From Prorocentrum cordatum (taxonomy: Eukaryota), in NCBI GenBank assembly GCA_963575745.1, contig CAUYUJ010000266.1:1-64000 (forward strand): a stretch of 64,000 nt of DNA. Direction: 5' to 3'. The notes beneath the pieces were generated by a model that had not been told where the DNA came from, searched no databases, and saw only the letters and a program-made list of their open reading frames with translations. The translations under genes were made by a program, and so were the position numbers. Shown piece by piece: positions 7,136 to 64,000 of this stretch; position 1 is the first letter of the stretch; every line of letters begins with the position of its first letter.

Positions 7136-7822
<687 letters not shown>

Positions 7823-14199: not shown

Positions 14200-14735
14200 C
14201 GCCACTACACCCACCACCACCACCACTACCACCACCACCACCACCACCACCACCACAACCACCACCACCACAACTCACCATAACCACCGCCACCACCACA
14301 AAAACTCACCACCACTACCACCACCACCACCACAATCTACCACACCACCACCACCACCGCCACAACCACCACTACCAGCAGCACAACCCACCACCACCAC
14401 AAACCACCACGCCACAACCATCACCACCACCGCCACCACCACCACAACCACAACCATCACCTCCACAAACAACCGCCACCACCACAACCCATCACCACCA
14501 CCACCACAAACCACCACCACACTACCACCAAACCGCCACCACCACAACCCACCACCACCACTACCACTACCACAAACCACCACCACACCACCACCAAACC
14601 ACCATCACCACCACCCACCAACACAACCACCACCACCACCACAACACACACAACCACACCACCATCACCACAACCACCACCAACGCCACCACCACCACCA
14701 CAACCCACCAAGACCACCACCACCACCACCACCGT
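14200..14735. repeat. Degenerate (CAC)n microsatellite
   Basis: Read directly. Confidence 0.95.
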
Positions 14736-23206: not shown

Positions 23207-23306
23207 NNNNNNNNNNNNNNNNNNNNNNNNNNNNNNNNNNNNNNNNNNNNNNNNNNNNNNNNNNNNNNNNNNNNNNNNNNNNNNNNNNNNNNNNNNNNNN
23301 NNNNNN
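23207..23306. other. Assembly gap (100 N)
   Basis: N run. Confidence 1.
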
Positions 23307-28450: not shown

Positions 28451-30047
28451 GCAATAAAGGCTTAGACGGTTTGCCAGGCTGAACAGCCTTGCCCGCTTCG
28501 GACTAGCGGTACCCGCGCCTTGCCACGGGCAAACGAGCATATTGAGTCCAAATGGCTACGGCTCGGCAACCGAGGAGGAGGAAGAGGAGGAGCAGTAGGA
28601 GGAGAAAGAGGAGTTTGATGCTACGGGGGCAACCTCGCCTAATCTGGCCCTCACTTGTTGTGGTTTCGTAGACGCTGCGCTCCTCCACCGACGTCTGCGC
28701 ACCGTCAAAGAGGAGAAGGAGGAGGAGGAGGAATAATGTCCTCCCTCCCCCCCCTCTCTCCCTCCCTCGTCGCCGCTGGGGACGAGGGGGATGGCAAGAA
28801 GGAGAGAGATGCCTCCTCCCTCCCTCCCGACCCCCCCTCTGCCCAACTCTGTCGTCGTCCCGCGTCGCCGCCAGACGAAAGGGAGGCCGAGGAGGTGGGG
28901 GGCAAGTCCTCCCTAAGCGGGGGAGAGGAGGCCTCCGTGCGGACGGGACAGGGAGGGGAGGCGGGGGAGGAGGCGGATGTGGGCATCGCGCAGCTGCGCA
29001 GGTCCACCTCCTCGTCCTCGTCCTCCTCCTCCTCCTCCTCCTCCTCCTTCTCCTCCTCCTCCTCCTCCTCCTCCTCCTCCTCCTCCTCCTCCTTGGTTGC
29101 TCATCTCCCTCCTCTCGTCGTCCTCCTCTCTGGTTGCTCATCTCCCTCCTCCTCTCTGGTTGCTCATCTCCCTCCTCTACTCCTCTCGTCCTCCTTCCTT
29201 CTTCCTCCTCCTCCTCCTCCTCCCTTCCTCCTCCTCCTCCCTTCCTCCTCCCTCCCCTCTCCTCCTCTCTGGTTGCTCACCTCTTTCCTGGGCGGGGGGA
29301 GGGCAGGAACGAGGTGGCTCTTTGTGACTGTTCCCCTCGGGTACAGTCGGGGCGTTGACCCGGGGGAAACCCAAATAACGAGGGCACTTTTTCCCATGAG
29401 CTAAACTTCGAGTTCTCATGGAAGACCTCAGGAAAACCTAAAGGGCGAACTGCAGAACAACTGAAGAACACTGAGCCCCTCCCCAACGAAACGAGTTCCT
29501 TCTTCAGCGCCCCTATTGGAATGGGGATTGAGGGGTTGGAGGCTGGGGAAGCGCAGTGGGGCCCTTCCGGCCCATGGAGAGAGGGGCCTCTATGGCGCTT
29601 GAAGCCCTGGAGGCGAAGGGGGTCAAGAGGAGCTCTGTTTGCTTGCTTCCTCAGAAGAGCTTCGCCGCGATGGAGGCTGGTCCCCAACACTTCCAAGCGC
29701 GCTGAAACGATGCCTCGAAAACCATGCGTCTCCTAGCTAACGTTCAGTTCTGGCGAATAATAAGAATATGCGACGGCGTAGATATCATCCACCGTGGCCC
29801 CTGGCAAGTTGCTGGCGGCGAGCGAGGGGGGGAAATCAGAAGGAGAAGGCCATCTAAGACGGCGGCGGGACTTCTCAGAAGCCCTCGCGCCTCCTGAGAA
29901 GCTGCCTCTGCCTTCGGGGAAGGCTCCGAAAACTTCCCAGAAGGCCGGAGGACTTCCGAACCTTCTGAGAAGGCCTTCTTCTCCTTCTCGCTTCCCCCCC
30001 TCGCTCGCCGCCGGGGCAGCCTGCGCGGCAGGGGCGGAATCGCGAGC

Positions 30048-38445: not shown

Positions 38446-40609
38446 CCTTCGAGGGGGAGGGCCGCTGGTGTCTCCTGTGGCCCCCCTCCAAAAAGGAGGA
38501 GGAGGAGGAGGAGGAGGAAAAGGACGAGGAGGAGGAGGAGGAGGAGAGAGGAGGAGGAGGAGGAGGAGGAGGAGAGGGAGGAGGGAGAGGAGGAGGAGAG
38601 GAGGAGGAGGAGGAGGAGAGGAGGGAGGAGGAGGACGCGGAGGATGAGCAGAGGAGGAGACGAGAACGAGGACGGAGGAGGAGGAGAGAGAGGAGGAGGA
38701 GGAGGAGGAGGGAGGAGGAGGAAGAGGGAGGAGGAGGGAGGAGGAAGAGGAGGGAGGAGGAGGAAAAGGACGAGGAGGAGGAGGAGGAGGAGGACGACGA
38801 CGAGGAATGCATACGAGAACAGCGAAGGGGCACGCGACGCTGCGAGCCTTCGGCTTTTTGTCCGCGCCCTTCTCGGATCGGGACCTCCCCTCGGCCGCCC
38901 CCCCCCCCGGGGCATGCCCCGCCACGCCCCCTCGGGGCGCCGCGCGGCCTCTCCCGCGGCCGCGGCGGGCGTGCTCGTGCACGCCGGCGGCTCGCAGGCG
39001 AGGGGATACGACCTGCTGCCCACACTGGGACACAGGGAAACATGCTAGTACACCAATCGAAATCTGTAGTAGTACGGACGGGCGGTAAGGGCGCAAAGGC
39101 TTTGGACGCCAAAGTTGGCACTTTTGGGGCGGCGGACTGCCCGCAGAAGGGGTTGGCCGGTGAACACCGCGAAAGACGGGCCGCAGAGGTAAGGACGCAA
39201 GGGCACCCTAAGGACATCCGTGCGTCCTTACTATGAGTTTTGATTTTTTGTGCTGATTTTGGATGCGCACGTCCAACGCGAACAGGTACTACACAAGTTT
39301 TAACATGCATCGTTTCCCGAACGCCTACGGCCTGGAAGAGCCTGCCACGGGACTGGTCTGCCACCGTGCCCTTGGGCACGAATTGGAGTGCCTCGAGGAC
39401 CCTTGCTCGATCCCCTGATCCTCAGTCCTCACTCCTGGCAGGTCTTTGAAGGCCGAAATCCCCAATATTGACAACTCTCGGGGTTTGTCGCGTGCCTCCC
39501 AGGGCTTGGCTTCTCGTTTGGCTTGTCCCAAGGGGTCCCCGGAATGACCCAGGAGGGCACCGCTTCGCAAAACGATCGGTCCAAGACGCCCAAGATGACC
39601 TCTGGTCAACCGAAAACGCGCTCAAGACGCGCCAAGAGGCCTCCAATACCACACTCAAGAAAACCTCAAGAAGCAACCTTGCGGGTTTCTTAGCGCGTGA
39701 CATTTCCCCCCCATAACCCCCCCAGGGGACCTTCAAGACGGCCAGAATGGCCCCAAGAGGGCCCAAGATACCCCCAAGATGGCCCGCAAAACTGTCCCAA
39801 GATGCCTAAAAAACGGCCAAGATGGTCCAAGAGAGCCCTGGCCCAAGAAGCGCCCAAGAGGCCCCTAAGACGTCCTCCGGGAGGGCCCGAAAAGGCCTTC
39901 CTCACTGATTTCCCAATGTTTCTGAAAGATGCGGGCTTGTGCTTCAAATCTGCATTCCGACGCCTCAGACGGACCAAGGGCCCCCCAAACATTGAAAGAA
40001 GAATTACCTTGGCGACGCACCCAACCCGTGCGCAATGCTGGGCAAGAATACTTTGGAAAACTTTATGAGGGGGTGGTAACGTGGCGGGGCCTTCGATGGA
40101 GCTTAAATGCAGCACACCTCTCGCACGCCTCGCGCCCCATGATGGACCCCAGCAGCAATGCCGACAGCTGGCAGGGGCAGCAAGCTGACAGCCGACAGCT
40201 GACCTGCGGAAGCGGCAGCAATGGAACGCGCGGCGCAAGGGGAATATTGGTGTGGAATTGGAGGGAAAGCATAGGCATGTTACATCTGGATCGCGTTCTG
40301 GCAGCAGCGAAAAGATATAGCAGCAGGATCAATACGGCTGGAGGGAAGGGGGTGACGACGAGAGGAGGGCAGTGGAAGAAGGGGGACCATATTTCGAGGC
40401 ACGCCAGCAAACAGGCACAGTCAATGCAAGAAATCAGCAAGGCCGAGCTGCTTTGCCAGCAGCTGGGCCATTTTTACGGCACTTTTCAGCGCGGGGGTTG
40501 AAAAGCACGCAAGCGCGCCGCGAGGTCCGCGGGCGGCCCGCAAGAAAGGAACTGCAGCCCCCGATCCCGGATCATCTGGAAATCGTCGACCTTCGTGGCT
40601 CTGGAGAGC

Positions 40610-42258
40610 ATCACGTGCTGGACCCCCCAGCAGCCCTCGAAAGTGGCCATGTTCACAGATCGCAGCCCCCCAGGGATGGCGAGGTCTAATCTGAATCTGC
40701 CCAGCAGCCCTCGAAAGTGGCGATCGTTTCACAGATCGCAGCCCCCCAAGGATGGCGAGGTCGAATTTGAATCTGCGTAGCACGTCACTATGCTGGACCC
40801 CCCAGCGGCCCTCGAACGTGGCGACAATTGCACAGATGTCAGCTCCCCAAGGATGGCGAAGTCTAATTTGAACCTGCGTAGCACGTCACTATGCTGGGCC
40901 CCTGAGCAACCCTCGAAGATGGCGACAATTTTACAGATCGCAGCCCCCCGGGTATGGCGAGGTCGAATTTGAATCCGCGTAGGACGTCACTGTGCTGGAC
41001 ACCCCAGCACGCTTCGAAAGTGGCGAAAGTTTCACTGATCGCACCCCCCCAGGGATGGTGAGGTCGAATTTGAATCTGCGTAGGACGTCACTGTGCTGGA
41101 CCCCCCAGCAGCGCTCGGAAGTGGCGACAGTTTCACAGATCGCAGCCCCCCAGGGATGGCGAGGTCGAATTTGAATCTGCGTAGGACGTCACTGTGCTGG
41201 ACCCCCCAGCAGCGCTCGGAAGTGGCGACAGTTTCACAGATCGCAGCCCCTCAGGGATGGCGAGGTCGAATTTGAATATGCGTAGGACGTCACTGTGCTG
41301 GACCCCCCAGCAGCGCTCGGAAGTGGCGACTGTTTCACAGATCGCAGCCCCCCAGGGATGGCGAGGTCTAATTTGAATCCGTATAGCACGTCGCTATGCT
41401 GAACCCCCCGACAGCCCTCAAAAGTGGCGACTATTTGACAGATCGCAGCCCCCCAGGGATGGCGAGGACTATTTTGAACCCGCGTAGGACGTCACTGTGC
41501 TGGACCCCCCAGCAGGTCTCGAAAGTGGCAACAGTTTCAACGATCGCAACCCCACAAGGATGGCGAGGTCTATTTTGAATCCGCGTAGGACGTCACTGTG
41601 CTAGACCCCCCAGCAAGCCCTCGAAAGTGGCAACGGTTTCACAGATCGCAGCCCCCCAGGGATGGCGAAATCTATGTTAAATCCGCGTAAGACGTCACTG
41701 TGCTGGACCCCCCAGCAGGCCTCGAAAGTGGCGACAGTTTCACAGATCGCAGCCCCCCAAGGATGGCGAGGTCGAATTTGGATCTGCGTAGCACGGCACT
41801 GTGCTGGACCCCCAGCAGCCCTCGAAAGTGGCGACAGTTTCACAGATGGCAGCCCCCCAGGGATGGCGAGGTCTATTTTGAATCCGCGTAGGACGTCAAT
41901 GTGCTGGACCCCCCAGCAGCCCTCGAACGTAGCGACAGTTTCACTGATCGCACCCCTCCAGGGATGGCGAGGTCGAATTTGAATCTGCGTAGGACGCCAC
42001 TGTGCTGGACCCCCCAGCAGGTCTCGAAAGTGGCGACAGTTTCAACGATCGCAAACCCCCAGGGATGGCGAGGTCCAATTTGAATCCGCGTAGGACGTCA
42101 CTGTGCTGGACCCCCCAGCAAGCCTCGAAAGTGGCGACGGTTTCACAGATCGCAGACCCCCAGGGATGGCGAGGTCGAATTTGAATCTGCGTAGGACGTT
42201 ACTGTACTGGACCCCCCAGCAGCCCTCGAAAGTGGCGACGGTTTTACAAATCGCAGCC
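40610..42258. repeat. 101-bp tandem satellite, about 16 copies
   Basis: gtgctggaccccccagcag...cagggatggcgaggtcgaatttgaatc at 101-bp period (40992, 41093, 41194). Confidence 0.95.
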
Positions 42259-43994
42259 TCCCCGCCCCCCCCCGAGGCAAGACAGGAGGCAGGAGGGAGG
42301 CGGGAAGGAGAGAAGGAAAGACGGAGACCACAGTGCATTATTCAAAACGAATGCCCAACCAAGGAGGGTTGCGAAAAAACAGCGTAAACCTGAACTTTTG
42401 GCGCTCCGCGCGAGCGTGGCAAGGCCCCCTCCCTGGCGCGCGGAGCGTGCCAGGGGCGGCGCCGGAGGTGCCGCGGGGGGGCCCAGCGCGCGAAGCCCAA
42501 GGTGCTCCAAGATAGGTCTCCTCATCATTCTCCTCCTCCTCCTCCTTCATTATCCTCCCTCTCCTCGACCTCCTCCTCCTTTTCCTCCTCCTTTTCCTTC
42601 TCCTCCTCCTCCTCCTCCTCCTCCTCCTATTGTTCCCCGAAGGGCCTCCACAGTGGCTGGGGGAACGCATGATCCAATAGCGTGGCCAAGCTTTGCCCAA
42701 ACGTCTGGCCACATAGGCGTGTCCTGAAAAGCAGGGGGCGGCGATGATTCGCCGCAGGCGACTTCGACACGATAGGACTTCTGAGAAGGCGCGTGGCCCT
42801 AGAGGGCCGACGCGCGCATAACAGAAGTATGTTTGGACGTTGCCGACAAACGTGACGTCCACTCTCCACTGCTCCAGAAGGGAATTATCCCCACCACGGT
42901 CCCTGGTCGCCCGCACAGACAAGGAAACGGCCTTTATCCGCTCTGGTGACAGAGGAGGGAAGAGATGGAGCCAGGGGAGGGGGGGTGGAGAGAGAGGGGA
43001 GAGAGACCCGCGACCCCCGACATCGTGTGTTCTCACCCAAAGTCAAGTGTGAGCCCCCCGAAGTCTCGACCCCTTCCCCGCGACCAGCTTTTCATCCAAA
43101 GTCAATTTGTGACGGCCCGAAGGCAAGGCAAGGGCCCCCAAAGTTGAGTGAATACCCCGAAACATTCGCCGCGTTTTTTTCGCGACGCGAGGGGGTCTCG
43201 GAAAGACAAGAGACGACATGAAGGGGATTGAGGGGAGGGATCTGTTCCGCATGATCTTTTTCCCTTCCCCTATCTTTCACACCCTGACATGGTGGGGGGC
43301 CCCGTCATATGTGTGCACTTCTCGGATGCCACAACCCCTTCTCACATGCCCCACCGCTTTTCCCGCTCGTCTCCCATGTCCCAGCTTCTCGAGTTGGCAA
43401 GCAAGAGGTGGTTCAGTCCAGTTCCACAGGCGAGGGGGCGCAATCTCAGTCGAGTAGCGCGGCCAACAACCGACCAAATCTGGGGCCCAGGCCTTGGGGA
43501 ATAGAACCTGACCGAAACTTAGTCGTGGCAGTGCTCGACTCGAATAGGCTCCCCCTCCCCGTTCTCGGGGACGCGGTAACATGGGTCAGCGCTACTGCGG
43601 GTCAGCCAACACCATACAGTCGGACCTAAGGCAAAATAACATTCTTCAAGAACATGCAACCCTCCGCCGGCCACAACACACCGAACATCCAAGGGTACCC
43701 TCCCCGGGAAGCACGAGAACATCCAACAAACACGAAGAACATCCCCGAGCCGACCTCGATCCTTTACCTCGATCCGACTGTATCGCAAACCCTGCCCGGC
43801 CGCACAGCAGCAGCCGAAGCTGAGCCAGCGGAGGGGTCGGCCCCGCACGGCTCCCGAACCCGGGCCAGCCAGAGAGCACCCGAGGGGCTCCCGTCAGGGC
43901 TGACCCCCTGCGCCCCGCCCGGGCTCCTCCGCCAGAGTCGGCCTCCCGACTTGTCCAGGGAGTCCAGGGGTGCGGCTTGACCAGCACTTCGGGG

Positions 43995-44150: not shown

Positions 44151-45674
44151 ACCCGAGCACTGCCTCGGGGATCCAGCCAGGTCGACGAGAAAAGCCCCCG
44201 GGAGGCCGGAGCAAGACGCCCCACGAGCCTCGACCCTCGAATGCTCGGCAGGGATTCGCGCTGGCCCCCGCCACGTGCGCCGGGGCCCCGGCCGCTCCTC
44301 CTGCAGCCCTCGCTGGCCAGGGCGGGCTCTCCCTTTCCCTCTGGGCCGTGCGGGGTCTCTCCGCTCCTCCTCCTCCTCCTCCTCCTCCTCCTCCTCCTCC
44401 TCCTCCTCCTCCTCTTTTTCTTATTATTATGATGTTTCTCCTGTTCTTGACATTGTTATTATTCCTCTTCCTCTTCCTCTTCCTGCTCCTCCTCCTCCTC
44501 CTCCTCCGCCTCCTCCTCCTACTTGTCCTCCTCCTTTTCCTCCTCCTCCTCCCTCCTCCTCCTCCTGCCTCCTCATTCCTCCTCCTCCTCCTCCGCCTCC
44601 TCCTCCGCCTCCTCCTCCTTCTCCTCCTCCTCCTCCTCCTCTTCCTCTGTCTCTTATCGTTCTGGCCCCCCTCCCCTTCCTTCCCCCCTCTTTTCCCCTG
44701 CCATCTTCCTCGCCTCCCCGTCTTCTCCCCTCCTCGCCCCTCCCACACCTCGTCGGGTGCGCCAAAAGGGGGGGGCTGGCGCATCGTGGGCCGAGGCATG
44801 TGTGCGGGAGAGAGGGGTGGAGGGGAGCAGGGGACGTGTCGAGGGAAGGCGAGGGGGCCGTGAGACCTGGGAGAGCTCATGGCTCTGGCCATGCTATATT
44901 CACGCACCCCTGGTGCTCACCCCCCCTCCTGGACGCCTCCCAGCCCCTGGCACGCAGGCGGGGTCCAGGCTGACGGGGGCGGAGGGTCGCCAACGCATCG
45001 CCTGTGCATCGCCGGCGCACTGGCGTTGCGCATGCCACGACAATGGACACCCTAACAGTCCTATCACCGAATTAAACATGTGATTGAAATAAATTGAAAA
45101 AATGTGCTGAAAATGTTTAAAACATGTGTTCTACATGTTTACAGCAGTGTTGACACATTTTCTAGACATCTGGAAACTATTTGGCAACATGCTTCCTCTC
45201 CACTGATCGTCCTCCACAACACCGGCGACGTCGGCACATGCCTCGGCGCCCCTCGGCGTGGAGAGCGTCGGACCACACGCCGAGCCGCACCGCCGATGCC
45301 TCGGCCATGCACGGCGCGCGATCCGCCGATCCCGGTGCATCACTCGGACCCCGTCGGGGAGGCCCGAGTGGAAGCCCCCGAGGTCCTTCTGGGAAGCGCC
45401 CAGGCAGCCCCTCCGGCCGCGTGCGCCCCGACCGGCCCTCCTCCCCAGGGCCGCCCACGGCGACGGCAGGACCGAAGACCGACCGGAGCCCACCGCGAAG
45501 CCGACGAGCCGGCCGAACCGACAGGCCGCAGGCAGGCCATGGCAGGGCGCAGCGGCGCGCGGCGACGCCGCAGCGACGCAGCGGCCGGCCGAGCCGAGCG
45601 CCAACCGACCGCGACGCGGCCGAACCGACCGCACCGCGCAGACCCCTGCTCCCCCCGCCGCCCGGCGGCGGCAC

Positions 45675-45719
45675 CTGCTTCGCTTCTTGCGGGAGCGGGA
45701 CCTGGACCGCCCGCGCTTC
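45675..45719 (-). CDS. Host gene exon 3 ((R)KRGRSRSRSRKKRS), RS-rich
   Basis: ccag|G acceptor, AG|GT donor, 45 bp, phase 2 to 2. Confidence 0.7.
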
Positions 45720-45977
45720 CTGGCCCGGCGGGGCGCGGTGCGCGGGGGGGCGAGCGCGGGCCTGCCTCTTGCTGGTCGGGGTGTGCGCCGCGGGCTCGTG
45801 CCGCGACGAACCCGGCGTTGGCTTTTCTGACACCGCGCGGATCGCTCGACCTCGAACGATCGCGGCTTCCCGACGGCGCAGATCGATCCGTGTTGGCCGA
45901 TGCTGGGACCCCGGCGGCGTTCCACCTCGAGCGCCCGCGGCAGGGTCGCCGCCGTGGCGGCACGACGCGGGCGTGCC

Positions 45978-45978
<1 letters not shown>

Positions 45979-46012
<34 letters not shown>

Positions 46013-46432
46013 TGCGTGTGCGTGTGCGTGTGCGTGCGCGTGCGCGTGCGTGTGCGTGTGCGCGTGCGCGTGCGCGTGCGCGTGCGCGTGCGCGTGCGCG
46101 TGCGCGTGCGCGTGCGCGTGCGCGTGCGCGTGCGCGTGCGCGTGCGCGTGCGCGTGCGCGTGCGCGTGCGCGTGCGCGTGCGCGTGCGCGTGCGCGTGCG
46201 CGTGCGTGTGCGTGTGCGTGTGCGTGTGCGTGTGCGTGTGCGTGTGCGTGTGCGTGTGCGTGTGCGTGTGCGTGTGCGTGTGCGTGTGCGTGTGCGTGTG
46301 CGTGTGCGTGTGCGTGTGCGTGTGATGCGCGCGCGCGTGCGCGTGCGCGTGCGCGTGCGCGTGCGCGTGCGCGTGCGCGTGCGCGTGCGCGTGCGCGTGC
46401 GCGTGCGCGTGCGTGTGCGTGTGCGTGTGCGT

Positions 46433-46478
<46 letters not shown>

Positions 46479-46479
46479 G
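45979..46479. repeat. Compound (GT)n/(GCGCGT)n/(GCGTGT)n microsatellite, left flank of the retroelement
   Basis: Read directly. Confidence 0.97.
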
Positions 46480-47019
46480 CTCTTTTGCAGTTTGAATGGT
46501 CAGAAGATAGCAATGCTATGTCTGCAATTGGGTAGCTCAGTAATTGAATTCGGGCAGTTACATGAGCGTTTCATTCTCATGCCACGCTTCACCACACATC
46601 TCACATCCTACCATAGCTGTTTCTTTTCAGGCGATTACGGCACGGGTTTAGGCTAGCGCTGAAGACGCTCTAATGAGAGCGGCGCACACATGTGGGCTCG
46701 TGTCGATTCCATGCTACTAAAGTTGCTTATCGTTGGATGCTATTTGGTAAAATATTCATCGAGTGCTCTGCGAGCGAAGGGACCCCGATAATACCGTCTT
46801 GCACTACTCCTCTGACTTTGTCTTGGTGTTGCAGGGTGGCCACGAGTCTTGGGGTGTCGCTTGAGGATCTTGAGTTCGGCAATGTGTTCTCTTTCGAGGC
46901 CTCCGAAGACCCACATGAGTACCCCAATGATGACCTCAAGGACCCCTGGAGCTCCAAGGGCACGCACGACCTACAGGGTGACCTACTTTATCGATAAGCT
47001 TCTACTTCACTTCCAAGTG
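46480..47019 (+). repeat. Pseudo-LTR, left copy
   Basis: Colinear with 52753-53292 (constant offset 6273); about 16 substitutions counted by eye (~97% identity). Confidence 0.95.
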
Positions 47020-47311
47020 CGTACGCGGCGGGATCGGAGTGGCGACGAGCCGTCCCCATGTACCGCAGCCGCGGCAGGAGGTACGTAATGTTTGCCAGTT
47101 CTGTCTTCATATTACGAGTCTGGTTTGCCAGTCCAGTCTCCATATTACGAGTCTGGTTTGCCAGTGCAGCATTCATATCACAATCTCTTCTAAGCTCGAG
47201 TTTCCCTATGTATGATTCTGGCTTGTTCAGCCAAGGTGATGTCCCCCGAGCGTGCACACCACCACCCGTGAAGGCGGCCAAATACCGTGTCTCAAGGTTG
47301 TGGCGGTGCAA
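46988..47311 (-). CDS. Possible antisense ORF of the element with 11-aa coiled-coil repeats (LANQTRNMETG)
   Basis: A 33-bp tandem duplication at 47091-47178 preserves the frame. May extend upstream through the C-run near 47400. Confidence 0.35.
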   Translation of the reverse strand: MHRHNLETRYLAAFTGGGVHARGTSPWLNKPESYIGKLELRRDCDMNAALANQTRNMETGLANQTRNMKTELANITYLLPRLRYMGTARRHSDPAAYALGSEVEAYR

Positions 47312-48097
47312 GTGGTTGGGTTTGTGTACTACCTTCTCTTCCGAGACCGTGCTGCAATGGTGGCTAAACCGATCTCGGCGGCGCGATTGGAGACGCCCCC
47401 CCCCCCCCCCGACTCTGCACTCCCCACGATCGAGAGCACGCAGGCCCTCGTCATCGGCACCCAGGCCACCGCTTTCGACATCTCAATGTACGATTTATGC
47501 TCTGGATTCTGGTGTGCTGGTTTGCCTCTGGTGTACACGGAAGCCCTCTCCAGGACCAAGGCAACCGATGTATCCACAAATTTCGGGGCCAGCGCGGACC
47601 CTTTCAATATGATGGCCTCACGGGATCTCAAGTACGTGCTCGCGCTTACTCTGATATGTATGGTCTCTGTAGTTGGGCCTCGAACATCCCGACAGATCCT
47701 ATGTTTTCTGATCTACATGTGCCAAAGGAGATAACACTATTATTTGCAGGGGGTCTCTGGCAAGTGCTCGTGGCACAACCTTCGACTGCCTTCATTGATG
47801 GACTTCATGATATGAAACGTGCCTTGCTACCCCTGATGGACAAGCCAGGGACCCCACATGATGTATCAGCTCTGGCTCTTGCCGTAACGACAGTGATGTC
47901 TGTGATTCGGATTCGTGGCCTCTTTATTGCAGGAAGACGCCAACGGTGGCGGGCCCGTCAACTTTGTCGAAGCCTCCATCCTATGTGTACAGAGGCCCTT
48001 GCCCGCCCAGACTCCGCACGATTACCACACGCACTCGAACTAGCTCTGTTCCTACGTACTCAGTACATGGCCCTGCGAGGCCTGACCCCCCCCGAAG

Positions 48098-48697
48098 ATG
48101 CCCAATAGCAGCTACCTCTACCAGGTAGGCTCCGAGGTCCTCTACATTGGCAAGGGTAGTATCACGAGGGCCCATGGGCAGGCCTCAGGGGGTGTAGGAC
48201 GTTTTCGGGAACATGTCCGAGCTCTCTTCCAAGTCCAAAAAGGTCAACCTGTAAAAGAAGCTAGTCGTTATCATGGGCTACTTCCAGAATGTAGGCGCTG
48301 GCTCTTGTTTTTCTTCGTGCTGATTGCTTCCTCGTCCGAGATTTCGAGCCCCGAGAGTGCCTGCATTATGTTTGCCCAGCCGTCAGCTAACAACCAACCC
48401 AACGTTCGGTTGGGCCGCAGGTGTGCACGTGTGCGAGCTGGCCCACGCCGTCGGCGAGGACGACGGGACCGACGGCTTGCCTTGCCCCATAGCCCTGTGC
48501 CGCACTCCGAGAGCGCCCACTGGATGGAGGAGCGCATCAATTCCCTTCTCACTAGAGTCCTTGGGCACCAGAAGTATTCAAAACCACGTTATTATTGGCA
48601 AGACCGTTTGAGACTTACGTTTGATGAGCTCTATATTACCTTGATCCAGCACCGCTACTCAAAACATGGCATCCTGGGACCTTTGGGTATATATTAG
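48098..48697 (+). CDS. GIY-YIG endonuclease domain (N-terminal part of a disrupted EN-RT polyprotein, probably starting near 47656)
   Basis: SYLY...YIGKG, RFREH, a conserved E and PSANN. Joins the upstream frame via a shift in C8 (48086-48093). Confidence 0.8.
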   Translation: MPNSSYLYQVGSEVLYIGKGSITRAHGQASGGVGRFREHVRALFQVQKGQPVKEASRYHGLLPECRRWLLFFFVLIASSSEISSPESACIMFAQPSANNQPNVRLGRRCARVRAGPRRRRGRRDRRLALPHSPVPHSESAHWMEERINSLLTRVLGHQKYSKPRYYWQDRLRLTFDELYITLIQHRYSKHGILGPLGIY

Positions 48698-48731
48698 CCA
48701 AAGATGACAAAACTACTCCTTCGATGGGCTT

Positions 48732-50900
48732 GTGGGCACCACTTGGACATCTCTTGGGACCTCGCTTGCCGCTCCCGTCCTGGGAAAAAATGACTACGCC
48801 TATGTGTTTTGGTCCCTGGCTTCGCTTTGCCCTCGCTGGCAAGATAAAGTCCGGGTTCAAACATCCTTGCGAATCTTCCTACAGTCCCAAGGGTTGCCAG
48901 TCCCACGTATGACGACGTTCGAGGTACATTCTGAACAAGAGAAGATCGCCGCATCCCGATGGATCCAGCAGGTGTTTGCACGGCTAGCTCAGCACCGACC
49001 TGGCTGGGCAGGCCTCTTTCGCGGGCAGACGCGGATCGTGGTCAAAAGCATCCCGAACCTCCGCAAGACCTGCCACAATCTTCCTCGGGTGTGTCAACGA
49101 TTACAATTCACAGCCCTTCAAAGTTCCACTGCCATGGACCTTGATCGGGCCGCCAAGGGCCTTGACATGCAGAAGATGTCTTTGAATGCGAAGACCCCGA
49201 TGTCTAACCGAATTTTGACCACACAAGTATTGGGGACGTCTTGCCGTACTTGGGCACAGCGTATGGGACTCTGGGGACGTACGGATGCGGTTTCCCTTCC
49301 AGCTCTCCCTCGGCCTCAGCCCCAACGAGCCCCTGAGCCTCCACGACTAGCCCCCAGATACCAGCATTTACAGGCTACCTCCCAGAAGTTCTTCAAGACC
49401 CTCCAAGAGCACTCCGACGCGGTCTTCGCGCTTGAGGATAAGGACCCCAACAGCCTCTGGAAGGTGGACCCCAAGTGCATGATGGCAAGATGGCTCAGCA
49501 TCCTGGCCCACGCCCCGCATCGGTGGCAGGTTAGCCTTGCATCCTTGCCGGCGGTCACGGACTGGTACCGCCTCCTCTACGATAGCACGATCCCAAAAAG
49601 CCTACGACAAAGGAGAGAGGGCAAGTTCACCCAAAAGAATGTTCCATACTCTTACCCCACTGTAAAGGCAAAATGTTGGCTGGACGTTGACCGCCCTCCC
49701 GAGGCGGGGCGCCACCAATGCGCGAAGCCGAAGCACTCGTGCTTCAGGAACATCTGCTCGTTTGCCAAGTTTCCCTCTCGCCGCCTGTACAGGTATTTGA
49801 GCCGCGCCACGGTCTTTGCAGTGGAGACCGTGAACCCAGGTTGGGCGTGCCGCGGCTTGGAGGACGGCGTCCCGAATTTGGTGGCGCAGTTTGCGAAGCT
49901 AGAGAAAAACGCCTCGCTGAACCCTAAGTGCCTCTGGTGTGGGACCCCAATGGAAGCTCCAGGTACCTTTGTGGCTGACGCGGGGCAGGCTTACGAGGAA
50001 ACCCCCGTGACCACGATTTGGGGCTGTCTGGACCGATTGTTTGAGAGGTTACGGAAAGCGACCCCCAAGGAGGCCTTCACGATTCTCCATAGCAAGCGAA
50101 GTCACGTCTTCTTGGGGGGGGGGGCTCTATCAATGCCAAGCTTTGGGATCGCACTATTCTTCTGTTTGGAAGCCTCAAGCGAGCTCTCACGGGATTTATG
50201 GGAACGCGATAGTTAAAAGCTCTGGGACTCATCTTACACCAATGCCAAGGAATCCCCATTGGAGGCCCATTGAGTGGCGCGATCCTACACGCCGTGTTTT
50301 CTGAAGCGGAGTGGCTGTGTGATCGAGCCCACCCGCGGAATCGTCAGAGGATTGCTCGTGGCCGCTTAGTTGATGATTTGTTCCTCGCATCCTCCCGAGT
50401 TTGTCGTGCCTGTCTTTGTCAGCATGTTGAACGTGTTTACGGCCAGGTAGTGAAGTTTAACATCGAAGATGAAGTTCGGGTCGGGGAAGACACGGTGGTT
50501 CTCAAGTTTCTAGAGGCCGAGCTCCATGTAAACTTCTCCGAGATCAAGGTTTGGGTCATTCACAAGAATGAACGCTTTGCGTTTCAAAGGGGGACCCTCG
50601 AAGATTGTCAAGAAATCGGTCTGTCCGTTCGCAGGGGCCCTCACCGAGACCCAATTACGACTGCAGAGAGCCGAGCTTAAAGGACGCCTGCATCGATGGG
50701 GCCAGCACCACCTCGACCTGAAAACTGGATTGTCTTACTAAGTTCTGGCATGCTCCACTTCCTAAGACTGGGATACCCCGAGAATATCTTGAGAAGAATT
50801 TGGCGATATGTGTCTCCGCTGACTTATCTAAATGATATCATTGAACTATGCTTGCGTTTGGTTTACTCTACCAGTTCCCATCTACTTCCCCGTCCGTCTC
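48732..50900 (+). CDS. Penelope-type reverse transcriptase (frameshifted, in-frame TAG at 50210)
   Basis: EDKDPN (DKG-like), YPTVKAK...FRNICS, ADAGQAYE (motif A), QGIPIGGPLSG (50246-50278), RLVDD (50363-50377), LKFLE, and thumb LGYPENIL. Confidence 0.88.
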
Positions 50901-51019
50901 GCCTTGCTGCTGTTCATGACCAAGGCATTGCCGTACTTGAGAAGTCTCCGCACCTGCCCGAAGGTCACCTACCTGCGCGCCCCTCCCACGCCGCCCAGCG
51001 GACGCTAGCTACCGACACC

Positions 51020-52596
51020 ATGAGCTGGCGTGGTGGCAACCAGAGGCCTTATGGCAAGGGCGGCGGAGGAGGAAAGGGCCCTCGTGCCCCGCGGTTTCAG
51101 GGGCAATACGGTGGTGGTCAGCACTGGCAGGGCCCACCTCCTCCGCGTGCAGGGACCTTTACCTCCATGGCCCAGGAGATGAACTCGTTCATTGAGAACA
51201 TCGGAGCCCTTGGTGAGATGTCGCGTTTGGGGCTATCCTCAGCAACCAGCAGCAGGGCTCCGCCTCAGGTCCTACCACGACGGCACCTGGCACAAATACA
51301 ACACCCGCAACGACACCTACGACACCGACCCCAGCTACGGAACTGGCCAATGCGCTGACCCAAGTCCTTGAAGGTGATGGGTCCCAACGTGCGCGCCAAG
51401 ATACGCGAGTGCAACATACTGTCAACCGCTTGCAGGAGTTGGTTTCGAACCGCCCGACGGGCAGTAATATCTTTGAGGAGCAGCTCGAGCAGTCGGAGGT
51501 CTTCCGCAAGCTGCGAGCTTCGTTGGCTACCATGTCGGATACCGTGGCCACCCACGGTCGCCAGATCTCCACGCTCCAGACCTCCATCGAGGACCAGGGC
51601 GAGGATGTACGATCTACTCGTGCGCTGTTGGAACGCATGGCGCAGGGCATGGGCTTGGCCGTTCCGCCTGCTGCACCGCGCACTCCGAGACGTCCACCTA
51701 CCTCTGGCGCTGTGGGCACCCCGTCGCCATCGGGCTTGCCAAGCCCCGCGCCGCTGGCTGCTGCGGCTGGCGCGATGGGCGGTGACCACGATTCCCCAGG
51801 TGGCTCTCCTGCGCGTGATGGCGCCCTCGGAGTGCCTTGCTTCGATCAGCAAGTGGGCGCAGCTACCCATGTGAAAGCTCCTGGGTTCCTCGGCGCTGGC
51901 ACTGGCAGGCCTGATATGACTACGTTGGGTACCACGATTGCAAATGCACCCGACGCCAACATTACCTTCTCCGAATGGTGGAAAGAGGTCAGTCGTGCAA
52001 AAGGTTTGTCGCAGTGGGGGGTGAAAGTCAAGAACATTGGCTGTTCCGCTCAGGATGCGGACAACTGCAGCCACGTGATGAAGATTGGTGAGGCGCTGTT
52101 CGCCAGGCTTACGGATAGCGGTGAGTGGAGTTCGACGGACATGCAGACGATTCTCTTGCAGCGAGACCTCGATTCTGATCCTTACATTGCTGAGTACTAT
52201 CGTGGCAGGCTCCCTGCCCGCTCTAATGCTTGTGGGCCCTCACCCCTTTCCTTCTTCTCGCTCGACACTTTGTCGCGCATCGTGTTTCTGTGCATCTCTT
52301 GTGTTTGTATTCGGCTAGCCGTCGAGGGCTCCCTTCTCATCAGTGATGTCCGTGCCCTCACTGTTGGCAGCCTCGAACATGCCTTGGGTGAGGTGCCCCG
52401 TGTCTTCCCACTTGTGGTGGGAAGGTTTGGCCTCGATTTCGTCGCGAGTCGCTGGCTGTACCCGCCCCCTCTTGCCTCTGCAAGATTCCACAATATTGAT
52501 GTGGCAACGCCCACGGGGCTTACCCACGTTGCGCAGAACTTAGGTCAGGCTGCGCTTGTCTCGGGCGCAGCCGTGTTTGTGGATTGGTTCCTTTAA
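51020..52596 (+). CDS. Accessory ORF of the element: RG/G-rich N-terminus, T/P linker, coiled coil, small C-terminal domain (one frameshift near 51230)
   Basis: MSWRGGNQRPYGKGGGGGKG... shifts at G4 (51229-51232) into a long open frame with heptads LATMSDTVATHGRQISTLQTSIEDQGEDVRSTRALLE. Confidence 0.65.
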
Positions 52597-52752
52597 GCCT
52601 ACATGATCCCATGATCCCTAGCTAGGAACCCCAGCCATGACCTTAGGGAGCAGGTGATGTTGCCGACCTCAGGCGACGGATATCTCCTTTTTGTCTTTGC
52701 CTTTTTGATGCCCTCCCTGTCTTTGGGACGGTTGTGTGTGTGTGTGCGTGTG

Positions 52753-53292
52753 CTCTTTTGCAGTTTGAATGGTCAGAAGATAGCAATGCTATGTCTGCAA
52801 TTGGGTAGCTCAGTAGTTGAATTCGGGCAGTTACATGGGCGTTTCATTCTCATGCCACGCTTCACCACACATCTCACATCCTACCATAGCTGTTTCTTTT
52901 CAGGCGATTACGGCACGGGTTTAGGCTAGCGCTGAAGACGCTCTAATGAGAGCGGCGCACACATGTGGGCTCGTGTCGATTCCATGCTACTAAAGTTGCT
53001 TCTCGTTGGATGCTCTGTGGTAAGATATTCATCGAGTGCTCTGCGAGCGAAGGGACCCCGAGAATACCGTCTTGTACTACTCCTCTGGCGTTGTCTTGGT
53101 GTTGCAAGGTGGCCAAGAGTCTTGGGGTGTCGCTTGAGGATCTTGAGTTCGGCAATGCGTTCTCTTTGGAGGCCTCCGAAGACCCACATGAGTACCCCAA
53201 TGATGACCTCAAGGACCTCTGGAGCTCCAAGGGCACGCACGACCTACAGGGTGACCTGCTTTATCGATAAGCTTCTACTTCACTTCCAAGTG
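52753..53292 (+). repeat. Pseudo-LTR, right copy
   Basis: Direct repeat of 46480-47019, preceded by a 20-nt internal (TG)7CGTGTG tract. Confidence 0.95.
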
Positions 53293-54106
53293 TGTGTGTG
53301 TGTGTGTGTGTGCGCGTGTGCGTGTGCGTGTGCGTGTGTGTGCGTGTGCGTGTGCGTGTGCGTGTGCGTGTGCGTGTGCGTGTGCGTGTGCGCGTGCGCG
53401 TGCGCGTGCGTGTGCGCGCACACGCACGCGTGCGCGTGCGCGTGCGCGCGCGCGTGCGCGCGTGCGCGCGTGCGAACGTGCGCGCGTGCGCGCGTGCGCG
53501 CGTTGCGCGTGTGCGCGTGTGCGCGTGTGCGCGTGTGCGCGTGTGCGCGTGTGCGCGTGTGCGCGTGTGCGCGTGTGCGCGTGTGCGCGTGTGCGCGCGT
53601 GCGCGCGTGCGCGCGTGCGCGCGTGCGTGTGTGCGTGTGTGCGTGTGTGCGTGTGTGCGTGTGTGCGTGTGTGCGTGTGTGCGTGTGTGCGTGTGTGCGT
53701 GTGTGCGTGTGTGCGTGTGTGCGTGTGTGCGTGTGTGCGTGTGTGCGTGTGTGCGTGTGTGCGTGTGTGCGTGTGTGCGTGTGTGCGTGTGTGCGTGTGT
53801 GCGTGTGTGCGTGTGTGCGTGTGTGCGTGTGTGCGTGTGTGCGTGTGTGCGTGTGTGCGTGTGTGCGTGTGTGCGTGTGTGCGTGTGTGCGTGTGTGCGT
53901 GTGTGCGTGTGTGCGTGTGTGCGTGTGTGCGTGTGTGCGTGTGTGCGTGTGTGCGTGTGTGCGTGTGTGCATGTGCGTGTGTGCGTGAGTGCGTGTGTGC
54001 GTGTGTGCGTGTGTGCGTGTGTGCGTGTGTGCGTGTGTGCGTGTGTGCGTGTGCGTGTGCGTGTGCGTGTGCGTGTGCGTGTGTGTGTGTGTGTGTGCGT
54101 GTGTGT
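53293..54106. repeat. Compound (GT)/(GCGTGT)/(GTGTGCGT)n microsatellite, right flank
   Basis: Read directly. Confidence 0.97.
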
Positions 54107-55342
54107 TCCCTGTGGATGTATGCTGGCGCATCCCGCCAGCGTACCAGGCTCTTGACCGACAGCTGCTCGAAGAAAGCGTGTGTGTATGTGTGTGCGTGGG
54201 GGGAATTCTGAGAGGCTCTTCTCACGCGAGTGTGGGATTGGAGGGGGCCAGCGATTGGCAGATGGGGCGCTGGCCAACGAAGACCCTCATTTGTGAATGT
54301 GACGAAACATACCTCCAGTTTGCAGCGGTGCTTCTGCATACATGAGTGCCCGCTTTTGTATCTCTCGGTCATCGCCAGCGGCTCCCTCCAGTGCGTCATG
54401 GACACCTCCGACAATTGGTTCAACGCATCGCACAACACAGTCTAACAATCCCACCCGCCCTTTGGGCGTAGGTGGGCACACGAGCGTTCTCTCTCCTCTT
54501 CTAAAGCCCCCTTCCCTTCGGGGAGGGGTGCCCTCCCCCTCTCCTCCCAGAGGTTTTTCCGGGGGGGGCGCGATGTGTCCGAGGGTCCTTCTTCGCCCAT
54601 GATGGCTCCAAGAGGGCCTTCGATGCTCCAAGATGGTCTCCAAAGCGTCTCAAGATAGCCGAAGATGGTTCAAGATAGTTTCCGCCATACCTCCAAGAGG
54701 CCCGACGAGGGCCACAAGACGGTTCCAAGTGCTCTGGGGGCCCCTCTCAGGACCTCCCCCATAAACCCAGATCCTTCACCAGCCAAAGGAACATCCATGA
54801 CGTGTGCCTTCTCGCCTTTTGGTGGGCTGCGGCGCGCAGGGACCGCACGAAGCTCCACAGAAGCGTACGATGTGGTGGCCGTGCAGAGCTTCCTATGGTC
54901 CTTGCGCGTCGGGCGTTTGTTCCTTGCGCGTCGGCCGTTTGGTCCTTGCGCGTCGGGTGTTTGTGGTCCTTGCGCGTCGGGTGTTTGTGGTCCTTGCGCG
55001 TCTGGGCTGGGTCCTTGCGCGTCGGGCCCCAGGGCCCCGCCAGGGGCGCGCGCGCGGAGCGAGAGTGCTCCACCGCTCCGCTGGGGGTTGGGCCTGCGGA
55101 GCTCGGGCGTGGCCCCGTGGAGCCTCTGTTCGGTCACTGCGCCCGTCGAGCAGGTAGAGTCGAGCTGGAGTCGAGCTAGGTTCGAGCAGGGATCGAAGAC
55201 GGACGGACCCAGGCAGGAGAAACGTCCTTCCAGAACACGAGACCCTCCGCAGGCCGAGGCACCCCAAATCATCAGATCACTTGAGAGTACACCCCCCCAG
55301 GATGCACGAGAACGTCCAACAAGCACGAGCAAAAGCAAAGGG

Positions 55343-55959
55343 CCCAACCGTGTGCAGTTGTGAGTAACGCAGCTGTGAATATCATCTTCGGTGGAGCTCC
55401 CTACGGGGCCACGAAGCGTGGGGAGGGGGGTGCCGAAGTGGGTGGGGAGACGCATGCGGACGGTGGCCACTGGGGCCTTCGTTGGAGCTTCCGATGGGGC
55501 CGCGAACCGTGTGAGGAGTGTGCCGAAATGGGTATGCGGTGGGCGGGGAGGACGCATGCGGACGCGGCCACTGGAGCCTTCGGCGGAGCTCCCTATGGGG
55601 CCACGAACCGTGTGAGGGGTGTGCCGAGATGGGCATGCGGTGGGCGGGGAGGACGCGTGCGGACGCGGCCACTAGGGCCTTCGGTGGAGCTCCCTACAGG
55701 GCCACGAACCGTGTGAGGGGTGTGCCGGTACAGGCATGCTGTGGGCGGGGAGGGCGCATGCGGACGCGGCCACTGGGGCCTTCGGTGGAGCTCCCGATGG
55801 GGCCACGAACCGTGTGAGGGGTGTGCCAGAATGGACATGCGGAGGGCAGAGGCAAGGAGGGGGAGGAGGGAGGAGGGGGAGAAGGAAGGAAGGAAGGAGG
55901 GAACGCGGGGCGCTCCCCTCGAATCGAGGACCCAACACCACAGGATGATTGGGGAAAAA
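55343..55959 (+). mobile_element. Satellite-carrying non-autonomous element (101-bp units, terminal hairpin plus A-run)
   Basis: Same 5' leader and unit as the 22.4-kb array; ends CCCAAC...GATTGGG GAAAAA. Confidence 0.65.
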
Positions 55960-62031: not shown

Positions 62032-63718
62032 CTAGTTGACCTCAACCTCCGCGTTGTGAATGCCGCGCTGGGGTGTTGGGCCCCTGCCGCGGCCAAGACA
62101 CTCGAGCCCCACCAGGCAGCCCAGCGCGACGCCGCAGACCAAGAACAAGATCAACAAGAAGAAGATCAAGACACCAGCGAAGACTGCAATTAATCCCCAT
62201 GGCTCGGTGGTGGCTGTGGTGTTTGACGTGTCCGAACTCGTGCTCGTATCGGTGGTCGTCGTGGCCGTCTTGATGGTGATGGTAGTAGTGCTTGACGTCG
62301 CGGAACGCGTGCCCGTATCGGCGGTCGTCGTGGCCGTCTTGGTGGTCGTCGCGGTGGTCGTCTCAGTTGTTGCCTCGGTGAAGTCGAGCACGTACGCGGA
62401 GCCGGAACTGTCGCCCTGGTCGTCGTCACCATAGGCCCCCACCACCACGCGGGCCCCGTCGGAGCTCACGGCCACCGAGGAACCGAAAAAGTCGTAGGCG
62501 GCCCCATCACTCGCCACAAGCTTCAGCAGCCTCTCGCCGGTGGCCCCGTCGAGCACGTACACGGAGCCGGAACCGGAGCCCTGGTCGTCGTCACCTCTGG
62601 CCCCCACCACCACGCGGGCCCCGTCGGAGCTCACGGCCACCGAGGAACCGAACAAGTCGTCTGCAGTCCCATCACTCGCCACAAGCTTCAGCAGCCTCTC
62701 GCCGGTGGCCCCGTCGAGCACGTACACGGAGCCTGAATTGTAGCCCTGGTCGCCGTCACCACAGGCCCCCACCACCACGCGGGCCCCGTCGGAGCTCACG
62801 GCCACCGAGGAACCGAATTTGTCGAAGGCGGCCCCATCACTCGCCACAAGCTTCAGCAGCGTCACGCCGGTGGCCCCGTCGAGCACGTACACGGAGCCGG
62901 AACTGGAGCCCTGGTCGCCGTCACCATAGGCCCCCACCACCACGCGGGCCCCGTCGGAGCTCACGGCCACCGAGGAACCGAAAAAGTCGAAGTTGGCCCC
63001 ATCACTCGCCACAAGCTTCAGCAGCGTCACGCCGGTGGCCCCGTCGAGCACGTACACGGAGCCGGAATTGGTGCCCTGGTCGTCGTCACCTATGGCCCCC
63101 ACCACCACGCGGGCCCCGTCGGAGCTCACGGCCACCGACTCACCGAACCAGTCGTCTGCAGCCCCATCACTCGCCACAAGCTTCAGCAGCGTCTCGCCGG
63201 TGGCCCCGTCGAGCACGTACACGGAGCCGGACTTGTAGCCCTGGTCGTCGTCATATCTGCTCCCCACCACCACCCCGGGCCCGTTTGGAGCTCACGGCCA
63301 CCGAGTAACCGAACATGTCGATTGCAGCCCCATCACTCGCCACAAACTTCAGCAGCGTCTCGCCAGTGGCCCCGTCGAGCACGTACACGGAGCCATGAAT
63401 ATTTGACGTATAGTCTTCGTAGTAGTAGTAAACGGCCCCCACCACCACGCGGGCCCCGTCGGAGCTCACGGCCACAGACATTCCGAACCGGTCGTTGGCG
63501 ACCCCATCACCCGCCATGAGTTTGAGCAACTGCACGCCGCTGGTAGACAGGCGCCTCCCGAACTCGGCCTGCGGCTCGCGAGGGCGACCGCTCGCCGAGC
63601 CCTCCACCCTCGGGCGGGCCAGCGTCCCGCTCGCCGGCGACCCGGCGCTCGGGGCGCCGCGCGCTGCCAGCAGCAAGAGCAGCGCGCCGACGCTGTGAGA
63701 CGTGCGCAGGCGCATCAT
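62032..63718 (-). pseudogene. Intronless FG-GAP (integrin-alpha-like) 7-blade beta-propeller membrane protein, retroposed copy with one frameshift
   Basis: Signal peptide, seven ~55-aa FGxSVAVSSDGARVVVGA...GSVYV repeats (165-bp period, one of 166 bp giving a frameshift near 63280), Thr-rich stalk, TM helix. Confidence 0.9.
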
Positions 63719-63800: not shown

Positions 63801-63813
63801 CTTGAGCCAAAAT
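63801..63813 (-). other. Dinoflagellate spliced-leader relic
   Basis: ATTTTGGCTCAAG is the exact 3' 13 nt of the DinoSL (DCCGTAGCCATTTTGGCTCAAG), 82 nt upstream of the FG-GAP ATG on the same strand. Confidence 0.88.
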
Positions 63814-64000
63814 TGCGACCAGCCCCGATGGCTTGCCCAAGACATTCCTTGTTCGGATTCACCGTCATCATATGGTTACAGCATCATCATTGCTCTTCTC
63901 TTTTACACTGGAATTCCTTGGTGATGCTTTCCGAAGGATTCCTTGTGTGAGGCTTTAAAATATAATCCCTTCGTGGTGCTTTCCAAAGGATTTTTTTTGC

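Follow-up and report, generated by a model that had tools for sequence, protein, structure and literature searches.

A probable Penelope-like retroelement with an N-terminal GIY-YIG nuclease and a telomerase-like reverse transcriptase, decayed between GT-type microsatellites of Prorocentrum cordatum

We analysed a stretch of 64,000 nucleotides from the dinoflagellate Prorocentrum cordatum (GenBank assembly GCA_963575745.1, contig CAUYUJ010000266.1, positions 1 to 64,000 of the forward strand), hereafter the window, and in it the retroelement at 46,480 to 53,292. A preliminary description made from the sequence had seen there a Penelope-like element (PLE) of several open reading frames (ORFs), with a GIY-YIG nuclease upstream of the reverse transcriptase (RT), direct repeats at its ends and a GT-type microsatellite around it. 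The features of the locus are listed below; labels of the form P0007 denote related proteins.

45980..46471, no strand: left flanking microsatellite (GTGTGC)n, about 82 units, the presumed target array (Tandem Repeats Finder, TRF)
46460..47022, plus strand: upstream pseudo-long terminal repeat (pseudo-LTR), read as the last 563 bp (3' end) of a tandem copy truncated at its 5' end (repeat comparison)
47090..47178, plus strand: 33-bp tandem repeat of 2.7 copies, 5' leader of the full-length unit (TRF)
47617..48108, plus strand, frame 1: conserved N-terminal domain (tblastn to P0009 and P0012; hidden Markov model, HMM)
48107..48400, plus strand, frame 2: core of the GIY-YIG endonuclease (EN), in ORF 48086-48697 (alignment, AlphaFold 2 (AF2), Foldseek, VIA)
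48401..48790, plus strand, frame 2: Arg-rich block and helical linker, with a TAG at 48695-48697 and a frame change at an A6 run
48792..50120, plus strand, frame 3: region like the telomerase RNA-binding domain (TRBD), DK motif, RT fingers with a Cys/His cluster, CxxC and motif A (tblastn, motifs)
49434-49448, plus strand: RT motif EDKDP
49659-49763, plus strand: Cys/His cluster KC...C..H.C
49929-49940, plus strand: Cys cluster CLWC
49974-50000, plus strand: RT motif ADAGQAYEE
50120..50590, plus strand, frame 2: insert like telomerase's insertion in fingers domain (IFD) (with a TAG at 50210-50212), motifs B' (QGIPIGG) and C (RLVDD), a CxxC and motifs D and E
50246-50275, plus strand: RT motif QGIPIGGPLS
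50363-50377, plus strand: RT motif RLVDD
50402-50413, plus strand: Cys cluster CRAC
50583..51292, plus strand: RT thumb and Gly-rich tract (tblastn, motifs)
50768-50788, plus strand: RT motif LGYPENI
51244..52596, plus strand, frame 1: coiled-coil-like C-terminal region and a conserved domain (tblastn to P0007 residues 1078-1359)
52733..53295, plus strand: downstream pseudo-LTR, the end of the 3' untranslated region of the full-length unit (repeat comparison)
53290..54105, no strand: right flanking microsatellite (GTGTGTGC)n, about 102 units (TRF)

Read from stop to stop, the plus strand of the element gives ORFs in frames 1, 2, 3, 2, 2 and 1, and the preliminary description had taken these for a multi-ORF element larger than a single-ORF PLE, a reading under which it would be an intact element with separate genes for nuclease, RT and an accessory protein. 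The relatives do not bear this out: P0007, P0014, P0016, P0018 and P0020 carry a complete EN, RT and C-terminal domain, the supposed extra ORF included, in a single protein. Aligned to the window by tblastn, relatives give collinear, abutting segments that pass through frames 1>2>3>2>3>2>1, with sum E-values of the window pieces down to 4e-173, far from any chance level, and frame changes near 48081-48110, 48781-48792, 50120, 50590, 50720 and between 51244 and 51340. The window copy thus carries five or six frameshifts, five of them at homopolymer runs (C8 near 48085-48092, A6 near 48785-48790, G11 at 50113-50123, G5 near 50589-50593 and A4 near 50720): the frame-3 RT segment at 48792..50120 leaves its frame at the G11 run, and the thumb is read in frame 3 at about 50590-50720 (AELKGRLHRW; high-scoring segment pairs of P0007 and P0008) and then in frame 2 (LGYPENI, GGGGGKG). 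In-frame TAG codons interrupt the homologous reading at 48695-48697 and 50210-50212, and a further TAG at 48106-48108 ends the frame of the N-terminal domain beside the C8 run with its frame change. As no residues are missing at the junctions, the frame changes are indels rather than introns or gene ends; introns in particular were rejected because the tblastn segments adjoin without loss of residues. Recoding was considered as well, since the two in-frame stops and the one at the first frame break are all TAG, but two to three codons in a frameshifted copy are no evidence for it.

In the public DNA run X1, 142 contig pieces align on the element (17 at identities of at least 99%, 60 at 95-99% and 65 at 90-95%), and relative to the window these contigs have indels at 48087, 48118, 48787, 50114 and 50720, which are the break points. 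A related genome therefore contains the family in repeated and diverged form, and at the sites where the window copy breaks, other copies retain the frame. With one ORF spanning all junctions in the relatives, no residues lost there, five changes at homopolymer runs and indels between copies at the break points, an intact multi-gene element is very improbable; nuclease, RT and accessory part, for whose co-conservation the preliminary description had proposed a check, are indeed conserved together, as one polypeptide and not as separate ORFs. Another reading of the same damage is that most frameshifts are long-read assembly errors, the real locus being less damaged and perhaps recently active, and both the coincidence of five frame changes with homopolymer runs and the varying length of the X1 contigs at those runs speak for it. 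The two in-frame TAGs, however, are substitutions and not run-length errors, and the pseudo-LTRs differ at 17 of 563 sites (3%), which fits an old copy; the X1 contigs, 90-99% alike, may be other copies and so do not settle the locus. Assembly errors at homopolymers could account for some of the frameshifts but not for the TAGs, and we consider it unlikely that they account for most of the frameshifts.

The coding region lies between two direct repeats, at 46460-47022 and 52733-53295, which are 563 bp each rather than the 540 bp first given for them and share 546 of 563 bases, with a 5.7-kb body between them. Both are made solely of sequence found 3' of the coding region. The right repeat terminates in ...CCAAGTG immediately ahead of (TG)n, while the left copy has the same end followed by the start of the body, and its first 20 bp or so are (TG)n that blend into the flanking array. 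The layout is that of a 5'-truncated copy placed head-to-tail ahead of a full copy, making the repeats pseudo-LTRs and not true LTRs. The location inside a GT-type microsatellite was confirmed by the TRF arrays on both sides, (GTGTGC)n abutting the left repeat and (GTGTGTGC)n the right one. GT-type arrays occupy about 1.6 kb of the window, where apart from the two at the element a single one exists, at 1-282, and because of this scarcity it is unlikely that both element ends lie in such DNA by chance, although this is a single case. No second copy of the element was found within the window by blastn or tblastn, nor was a hammerhead ribozyme detected at E<=1 on either strand of 45500-54500, where the rows from Rfam resembled microRNAs and fell on the microsatellite. 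The 5' region of the element has about 13 consecutive C at 47397-47411, and one related X1 contig is 4 bases shorter there; (C)n is a target motif reported for Chlamys elements in the text of PMC8557442.

The nuclease motifs YLYQVG, LYIGKG, RFREH, PESACI and QPSANN are found at 48113-48394 in frame 2, so that the nuclease at 48.1 kb precedes the RT motifs at 49.4-50.8 kb, the order first proposed, and both folds are supported. In an alignment of 41 sequences headed by the window ORF, Y20, G22, R39, H43, E90 and N102 are invariant and Y12 and I94 nearly so, whereas none of these sequences share a conserved Cys; hence there is no CCHH motif, as had been noticed from the sequence, and no CX2-5CxxC linker either. 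An iterated EN HMM recovers the domain in 61 of 174 relatives, N-terminal of the RT in the full-length ones. The AF2 model of the window nuclease ORF has a pLDDT of 85.6, and GIY-YIG domains of UvrC or I-TevI fill all of its Foldseek ranks 1-11 (E 0.08-0.46). A VIA search against 48,161 chains gave the I-TevI catalytic domain as best match (Z 8.7, root-mean-square deviation 2.3 Å, 84 residues aligned), followed by T4 EndoII (Z 6.5), UvrC (Z 5.6) and the restriction enzyme PD-T4-3 (Z 5.2); these were the only four matches with Z>=5, and all of them span the model from residues 1-8 to 103-105.

In a 65-sequence alignment of the RT, the catalytic D370 and D511-D512 are invariant, and DAGQxYE (motif A), GxPIGGxxS (motif B') and RY[VA]DD (motif C) are conserved. 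The LVDD of the window had been put forward as a divergent catalytic motif of the lineage, but YVDD is found in 39 of 65 relatives and LVDD in none (0/65), and RLVDD is private to the decayed window copy. Of the 57 sequences with residues at the DK motif (EDKD), 56-57 have it. All of the additional Cys/His clusters reported for the RT are present and conserved in the relatives: C273, C285, H290 and C292, set between RT1 and RT2, are kept in 58-60 of 61 sequences, the CxxC before motif A (C354, C357) in 65 of 65, and the CxxC after motif C (C521, C524) in 64-65 of 65. Motifs A and B' are separated by 89-132 residues (median 93) in all 65 sequences, a spacing that reflects an IFD-like insert.

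For the fold of the RT we relied on an AF2 model of the intact relative P0002 (pLDDT 82.4, pTM 0.79, with pLDDT above 90 across most of residues 20-680), which as modelled would comprise a TRBD-like region, fingers with an insert of IFD length, a palm and a thumb. At the IFD-like insert the model has extra helices and strands, and the length of the insert was compared by eye with rows of Fig. S1 of PMC8557442. Foldseek placed telomerase reverse transcriptases (TERTs; human, Candida, Tetrahymena, yeast and Tribolium) at ranks 1-17 with E-values of 5.5e-11 to 1.2e-6, followed by DRT2, LINE-1 ORF2p and a group II intron RT at about 1e-5. An unbiased VIA search likewise gave TERTs at ranks 1-4, with Ty3 RT at Z 10.2 against 19.0 for TERT, and in a second VIA comparison TERTs took ranks 1-16 with Z 14.1-19.7 over 335-498 aligned residues; LINE-1 reached Z 10.7-11.1 in VIA. 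The TERT alignments begin at P0002 residue 63-93 or thereabouts and thus extend into the TERT RNA-binding domain, whereas for R2 (Z 13.3) and the group II intron RT (Z 13.1) the match starts only at about 212-248. The PDB structures compared include no PLE.

Direct terminal repeats, structural matches to R2 and LINE-1 RTs at Z 10.7-13.3 and a TERT-like fold could also be read as signs of an LTR retrotransposon, a LINE or a host telomerase-like gene. With regard to the first two, Pfam shows no integrase, protease, gag, apurinic-type (APE) or restriction-like (RLE) endonuclease in the window ORFs or in 35 and 41 relatives, and TERTs outscore all other RTs over a longer span, R2 and LINE-1 matching the RT core only. 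TERT itself is a single host gene that has no nuclease and acts at chromosome ends. A host TERT would have no fused nuclease, no breaks and no flanking repeats and would not occur in many diverged copies, and readings of this kind can practically be set aside. The likeness to TERT is nevertheless considerable, as no structure matches better than TERT (Z up to 19.7) across thumb, RT and TRBD-like region; the motifs are alike too (DAGQAYE and DVTGAYD, GIPIGG and GIPQG, and the RLVDD of this copy), and a long insert occupies the IFD position. The differences are the nuclease fusion, the repeated and decayed state, the pseudo-LTRs, the extra domains of its own and the want of a profile-level match to PDB TERTs.

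Outside the two enzymes, the N-terminal domain of about 110 aa is located upstream of the EN in 32 of 178 relatives by HMM, and in 12 of 178 a C-terminal domain follows the RT in the same protein. The ORF at 51217-52596, the extra ORF of the preliminary description, aligns to the C-terminus of P0007, with homology stopping near 52146. An ESM Atlas search with the C-terminal domain gave no usable match, and the prediction of its self-association scored 0.06. The protein order from N- to C-terminus is accordingly N-terminal domain, GIY-YIG nuclease, Arg-rich block and helical linker, TERT-like RT, Gly-rich tract and coiled-coil-like C-terminal domain.

The relatives were found in a search of 5.8 billion proteins; none of them has a Pfam domain, and several consist of one long ORF. 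Among 1.84 billion cluster representatives (clusters at 50% identity), the family profile matched 2046 at E<=1e-3 and 368 at E<=1e-30. An RT-core tree of family members only was made with FastTree from 62 rows and 475 columns; 4 of 65 sequences with fewer than 380 core residues were left out, and the window row was read through its breaks with X. The tree has two main divisions and places the window as sister to P0009, in a clade that also holds P0007, P0014, P0016 and P0020, the members with the C-terminal domain. Seven metagenome loci of the family, of 1.2-3.5 kb, are too short to include element ends. The nearest named clusters in the ESM Atlas are Streptophyta and Chlorophyta proteins (0.97), followed by PLE-like animal clusters, from Cnidaria, Rotifera and Arthropoda, that carry HTH_animal, RVT_1 or DUF8422, neighbours which, as a lead only, are consistent with kinship to Chlamys.

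Taken together, the locus is very probably an old, inactivated copy of a single-ORF retrotransposon of the N-terminal-EN PLE design (the Naiad and Chlamys type) that would have moved by target-primed reverse transcription (TPRT). Several observations weigh against this assignment. The RT model is that of a relative at about 30% identity to the window translation and not of the broken sequence of the window, and the Foldseek E-values of the nuclease are weak, none being <=0.001. Pfam gave chance-level rows on the window ORFs (E 0.06-0.41), none of them RT or nuclease, no GIY-YIG family was found on the window ORFs or the 41 relatives (one RE_Eco29kI row had E 0.2), and RVT_1 gave only sub-threshold rows, for 2 of the 35 and 5 of the 41 relatives. 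The family profile had 0 matches to PDB sequences at E<=10, and three window ORFs searched against the same sequences gave nothing usable. The CxC (zf-CDGSH-like) motif, placed between EN and DK(G) motif in Naiads and nearly all Chlamys, is absent: ahead of the DK motif, no column of the 65-sequence alignment reaches 40% Cys. The ends were seen for one copy alone, so that microsatellite targeting has n=1, and the target-site duplication is unreadable. Finally, the PLE assignment is based on architecture, motifs and fold, and not on an RT tree with PLEs and TERTs.

The N-terminal-EN PLEs were described as Naiad and Chlamys by Craig, Yushenova, Rodriguez and Arkhipova in 2021 (PMC8557442). According to the text of that paper, Chlamys elements have no CCHH and no CX2-5CxxC linker, a CxC motif in nearly all cases, a DK motif and an IFD, and they have (CA)n or (C)n targets, pseudo-LTRs, mostly no hammerhead ribozymes and lengths of 3.3-8.2 kb, while Naiads occur in animals, carry CCHH and CX2-5CxxC fingers and a CxC motif, prefer (TA)n and measure 3.4-4.4 kb; hammerhead ribozymes are missing in Naiads and in most Chlamys. 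The window family shares with Naiad the order of nuclease and RT, the basic block between them, the location in a microsatellite (for the one copy seen), the pseudo-LTRs and the lack of a canonical hammerhead ribozyme, but differs in the fingers, the CxC, the size, the hosts and the (TA)n preference of Naiads. Compared with the canonical C-terminal-EN PLEs (Penelope/Poseidon, Neptune, Nematis and Hydra), the combination of GIY-YIG and TERT-related RT in one ORF and the pseudo-LTRs are the same, whereas the domain order is reversed, CCHH is absent and a hammerhead ribozyme was not found. Three PLE/Chlamys families were reported in 2025 from the brown alga Ectocarpus, PLEs being previously unreported in the TSAR supergroup (telonemids, stramenopiles, alveolates and rhizarians) according to that report (PMC12477816); they are likewise N-terminal-EN PLEs in TSAR, but in a stramenopile and not an alveolate host, and the likeness is one of description and not of sequence.

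The closest described system is Chlamys, and it is a real possibility, if not the probable outcome, that the family nests in the described Chlamys clade and adds only a new host record, a dinoflagellate. As far as that description goes (PMC8557442), the two have in common an N-terminal GIY-YIG nuclease without CCHH or CX2-5CxxC linker that keeps the R/H/E/N residues, an Arg/Lys-rich block behind it, a DK motif with variable third residue, a long A-B' insert, insertion in microsatellites of the (CA)n/(TG)n type, pseudo-LTRs, no canonical hammerhead ribozyme and a size of several kb, the 6.3 kb body length falling within the Chlamys range. The Streptophyta and Chlorophyta clusters nearest in the ESM Atlas and the presence of PLE/Chlamys in a brown alga, likewise a member of TSAR (PMC12477816), point in the same direction. 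The family thus agrees with Chlamys on every listed trait except CxC, in a comparison by description and not by RT tree.

Against such nesting stand the absence of the CxC motif, which for Chlamys was seen in supplementary Fig. S4 of PMC8557442, and the N- and C-terminal domains and three Cys sets, which are not among the Chlamys features described there. The hallmark strings DAGQ, GIPIG, EDKD and DKDP occur 0 times in the searched supplement text of Craig et al., which comprised the first 400 residues of ORFs and the motif A-B' alignment of Fig. S1. By eye, motif A is also more TERT-like than Chlamys-like, DAGQAYE being nearer to DVTGAYD of TERT than to DF..LYTN of Chlamys. The features that set the family apart are the Cys/His sets inside the RT and the conserved N-terminal domain of about 110 aa, with in the subclade of the window also a Gly-rich tract and a C-terminal domain of about 250 aa, and the dinoflagellate host. 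In the same supplement, the Chara elements Chlamys-2_cBra and Chlamys-5_cBra have a separate upstream ORF, Gly/Asn/Trp-rich and coiled-coil with a zinc knuckle; the Gly-rich and coiled-coil-like region of the window family is similar in composition, but follows the RT in the same protein and lacks a zinc knuckle.

A tentative alternative is that the family forms a separate deep branch of nuclease-bearing telomerase-like retroelements and is not an offshoot of Chlamys. It would be distinguished by the lack of CxC, by motifs A, B' and C that resemble those of TERT, by a TRBD-like domain, by the conserved Cys/His sets of the RT and by N- and C-terminal domains of its own. Returning to the N-terminal-EN PLE design, the family looks like an undescribed variant of it in a new host group. 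The suggestion of a lineage undescribed in alveolates has so far held up: full-text literature searches turned up no description of PLEs from dinoflagellates, neither dinoflagellates nor alveolates are mentioned in the main text of Craig et al. (PMC8557442), 'PLE' or 'Penelope' occurs 0 times in a 2024 dinoflagellate genomics review, and the report of 2025 is the first for TSAR, as stated there (PMC12477816).

By analogy with described elements, the nuclease would nick (TG/CA)n DNA and the RT would extend the freed 3'-OH while copying the element RNA; for a Poseidon element, nuclease cleavage and TPRT were shown in vitro, as reported in PMC11167929. Copying of a tandem or re-used template would then place a 5'-truncated copy ahead of the full one and give rise to the 563-bp pseudo-LTRs. 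The Cys/His sets may bind zinc and may replace the missing CCHH and CxC fingers in the choice of target, while the Gly-rich tract and the coiled-coil-like C-terminal domain may bind RNA or mediate assembly.

With respect to the surroundings of the element, two relics on the minus strand, which resemble the dinoflagellate spliced leader, support but do not prove the earlier impression of a dinoflagellate-type genome. The one at 28541-28561 has 3 mismatches in 21 bases, was matched in 0 of 100 shuffles and lies directly before an ATG; the one at 63801-63816 has 1 mismatch in 16 bases (chance expectation 0.01) and lies upstream of an FG-GAP repeat ORF. A spliced leader relic before a gene is typical of retroposed gene copies in dinoflagellates. 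The FG-GAP ORF (62035-63291, minus strand, 419 aa) contains six FG-GAP_2 repeats (Pfam E 1.7e-83) and coincides in the DNA with a 165/330-bp tandem repeat at 62383-63516, and for 21 of the 22 long, less biased window ORFs outside the element no Pfam family was found. Arrays at 22454-23186 and 55386-55847 have units of 90-101 bp with a common core CTTCGGTGGAGCTCCC..GGGGCCACGAA and represent a dispersed satellite family that flanks the element on both sides. Further repeats are a 101-bp tandem repeat at 40700-42263 (15.5 copies, 87% matches), a 75-bp array at 10785-11710 (12 copies) and many long trinucleotide arrays (ATC, CAT, CCA, AGG, CTC), including 3173-3636, 7136-7815, 14211-14733 and 38494-38806. 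Runs of exactly 100 N, which are scaffold gaps, are found at 9762-9861, within a CCT/CTC-type simple repeat, and at 23207-23306.

PLEs are the retroelements closest to telomerase. Green algae and invertebrates already provide examples of the design of nuclease followed by RT, but the large marine-protist branch seems undescribed. The known range of PLEs reached TSAR only in 2025, with a brown alga, and a large dinoflagellate family would add the alveolates. As Pfam is blind to both enzymes, annotation of dinoflagellate repeats is likely to file these elements of about 6 kb as unknown. An RT that matches TERT in structure from RNA-binding domain to thumb is useful for the question of kinship between telomerase and mobile RTs, and the presumed (TG)n target together with the conserved Cys sets provides concrete hypotheses on how a GIY-YIG nuclease may be aimed without zinc fingers. 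If the family should turn out to be a separate deep branch, it would be one that is abundant in dinoflagellates and other marine protists (2046 clusters) and has been missed by Pfam-based annotation, and it could lie nearer to the root of TERT than any described PLE.

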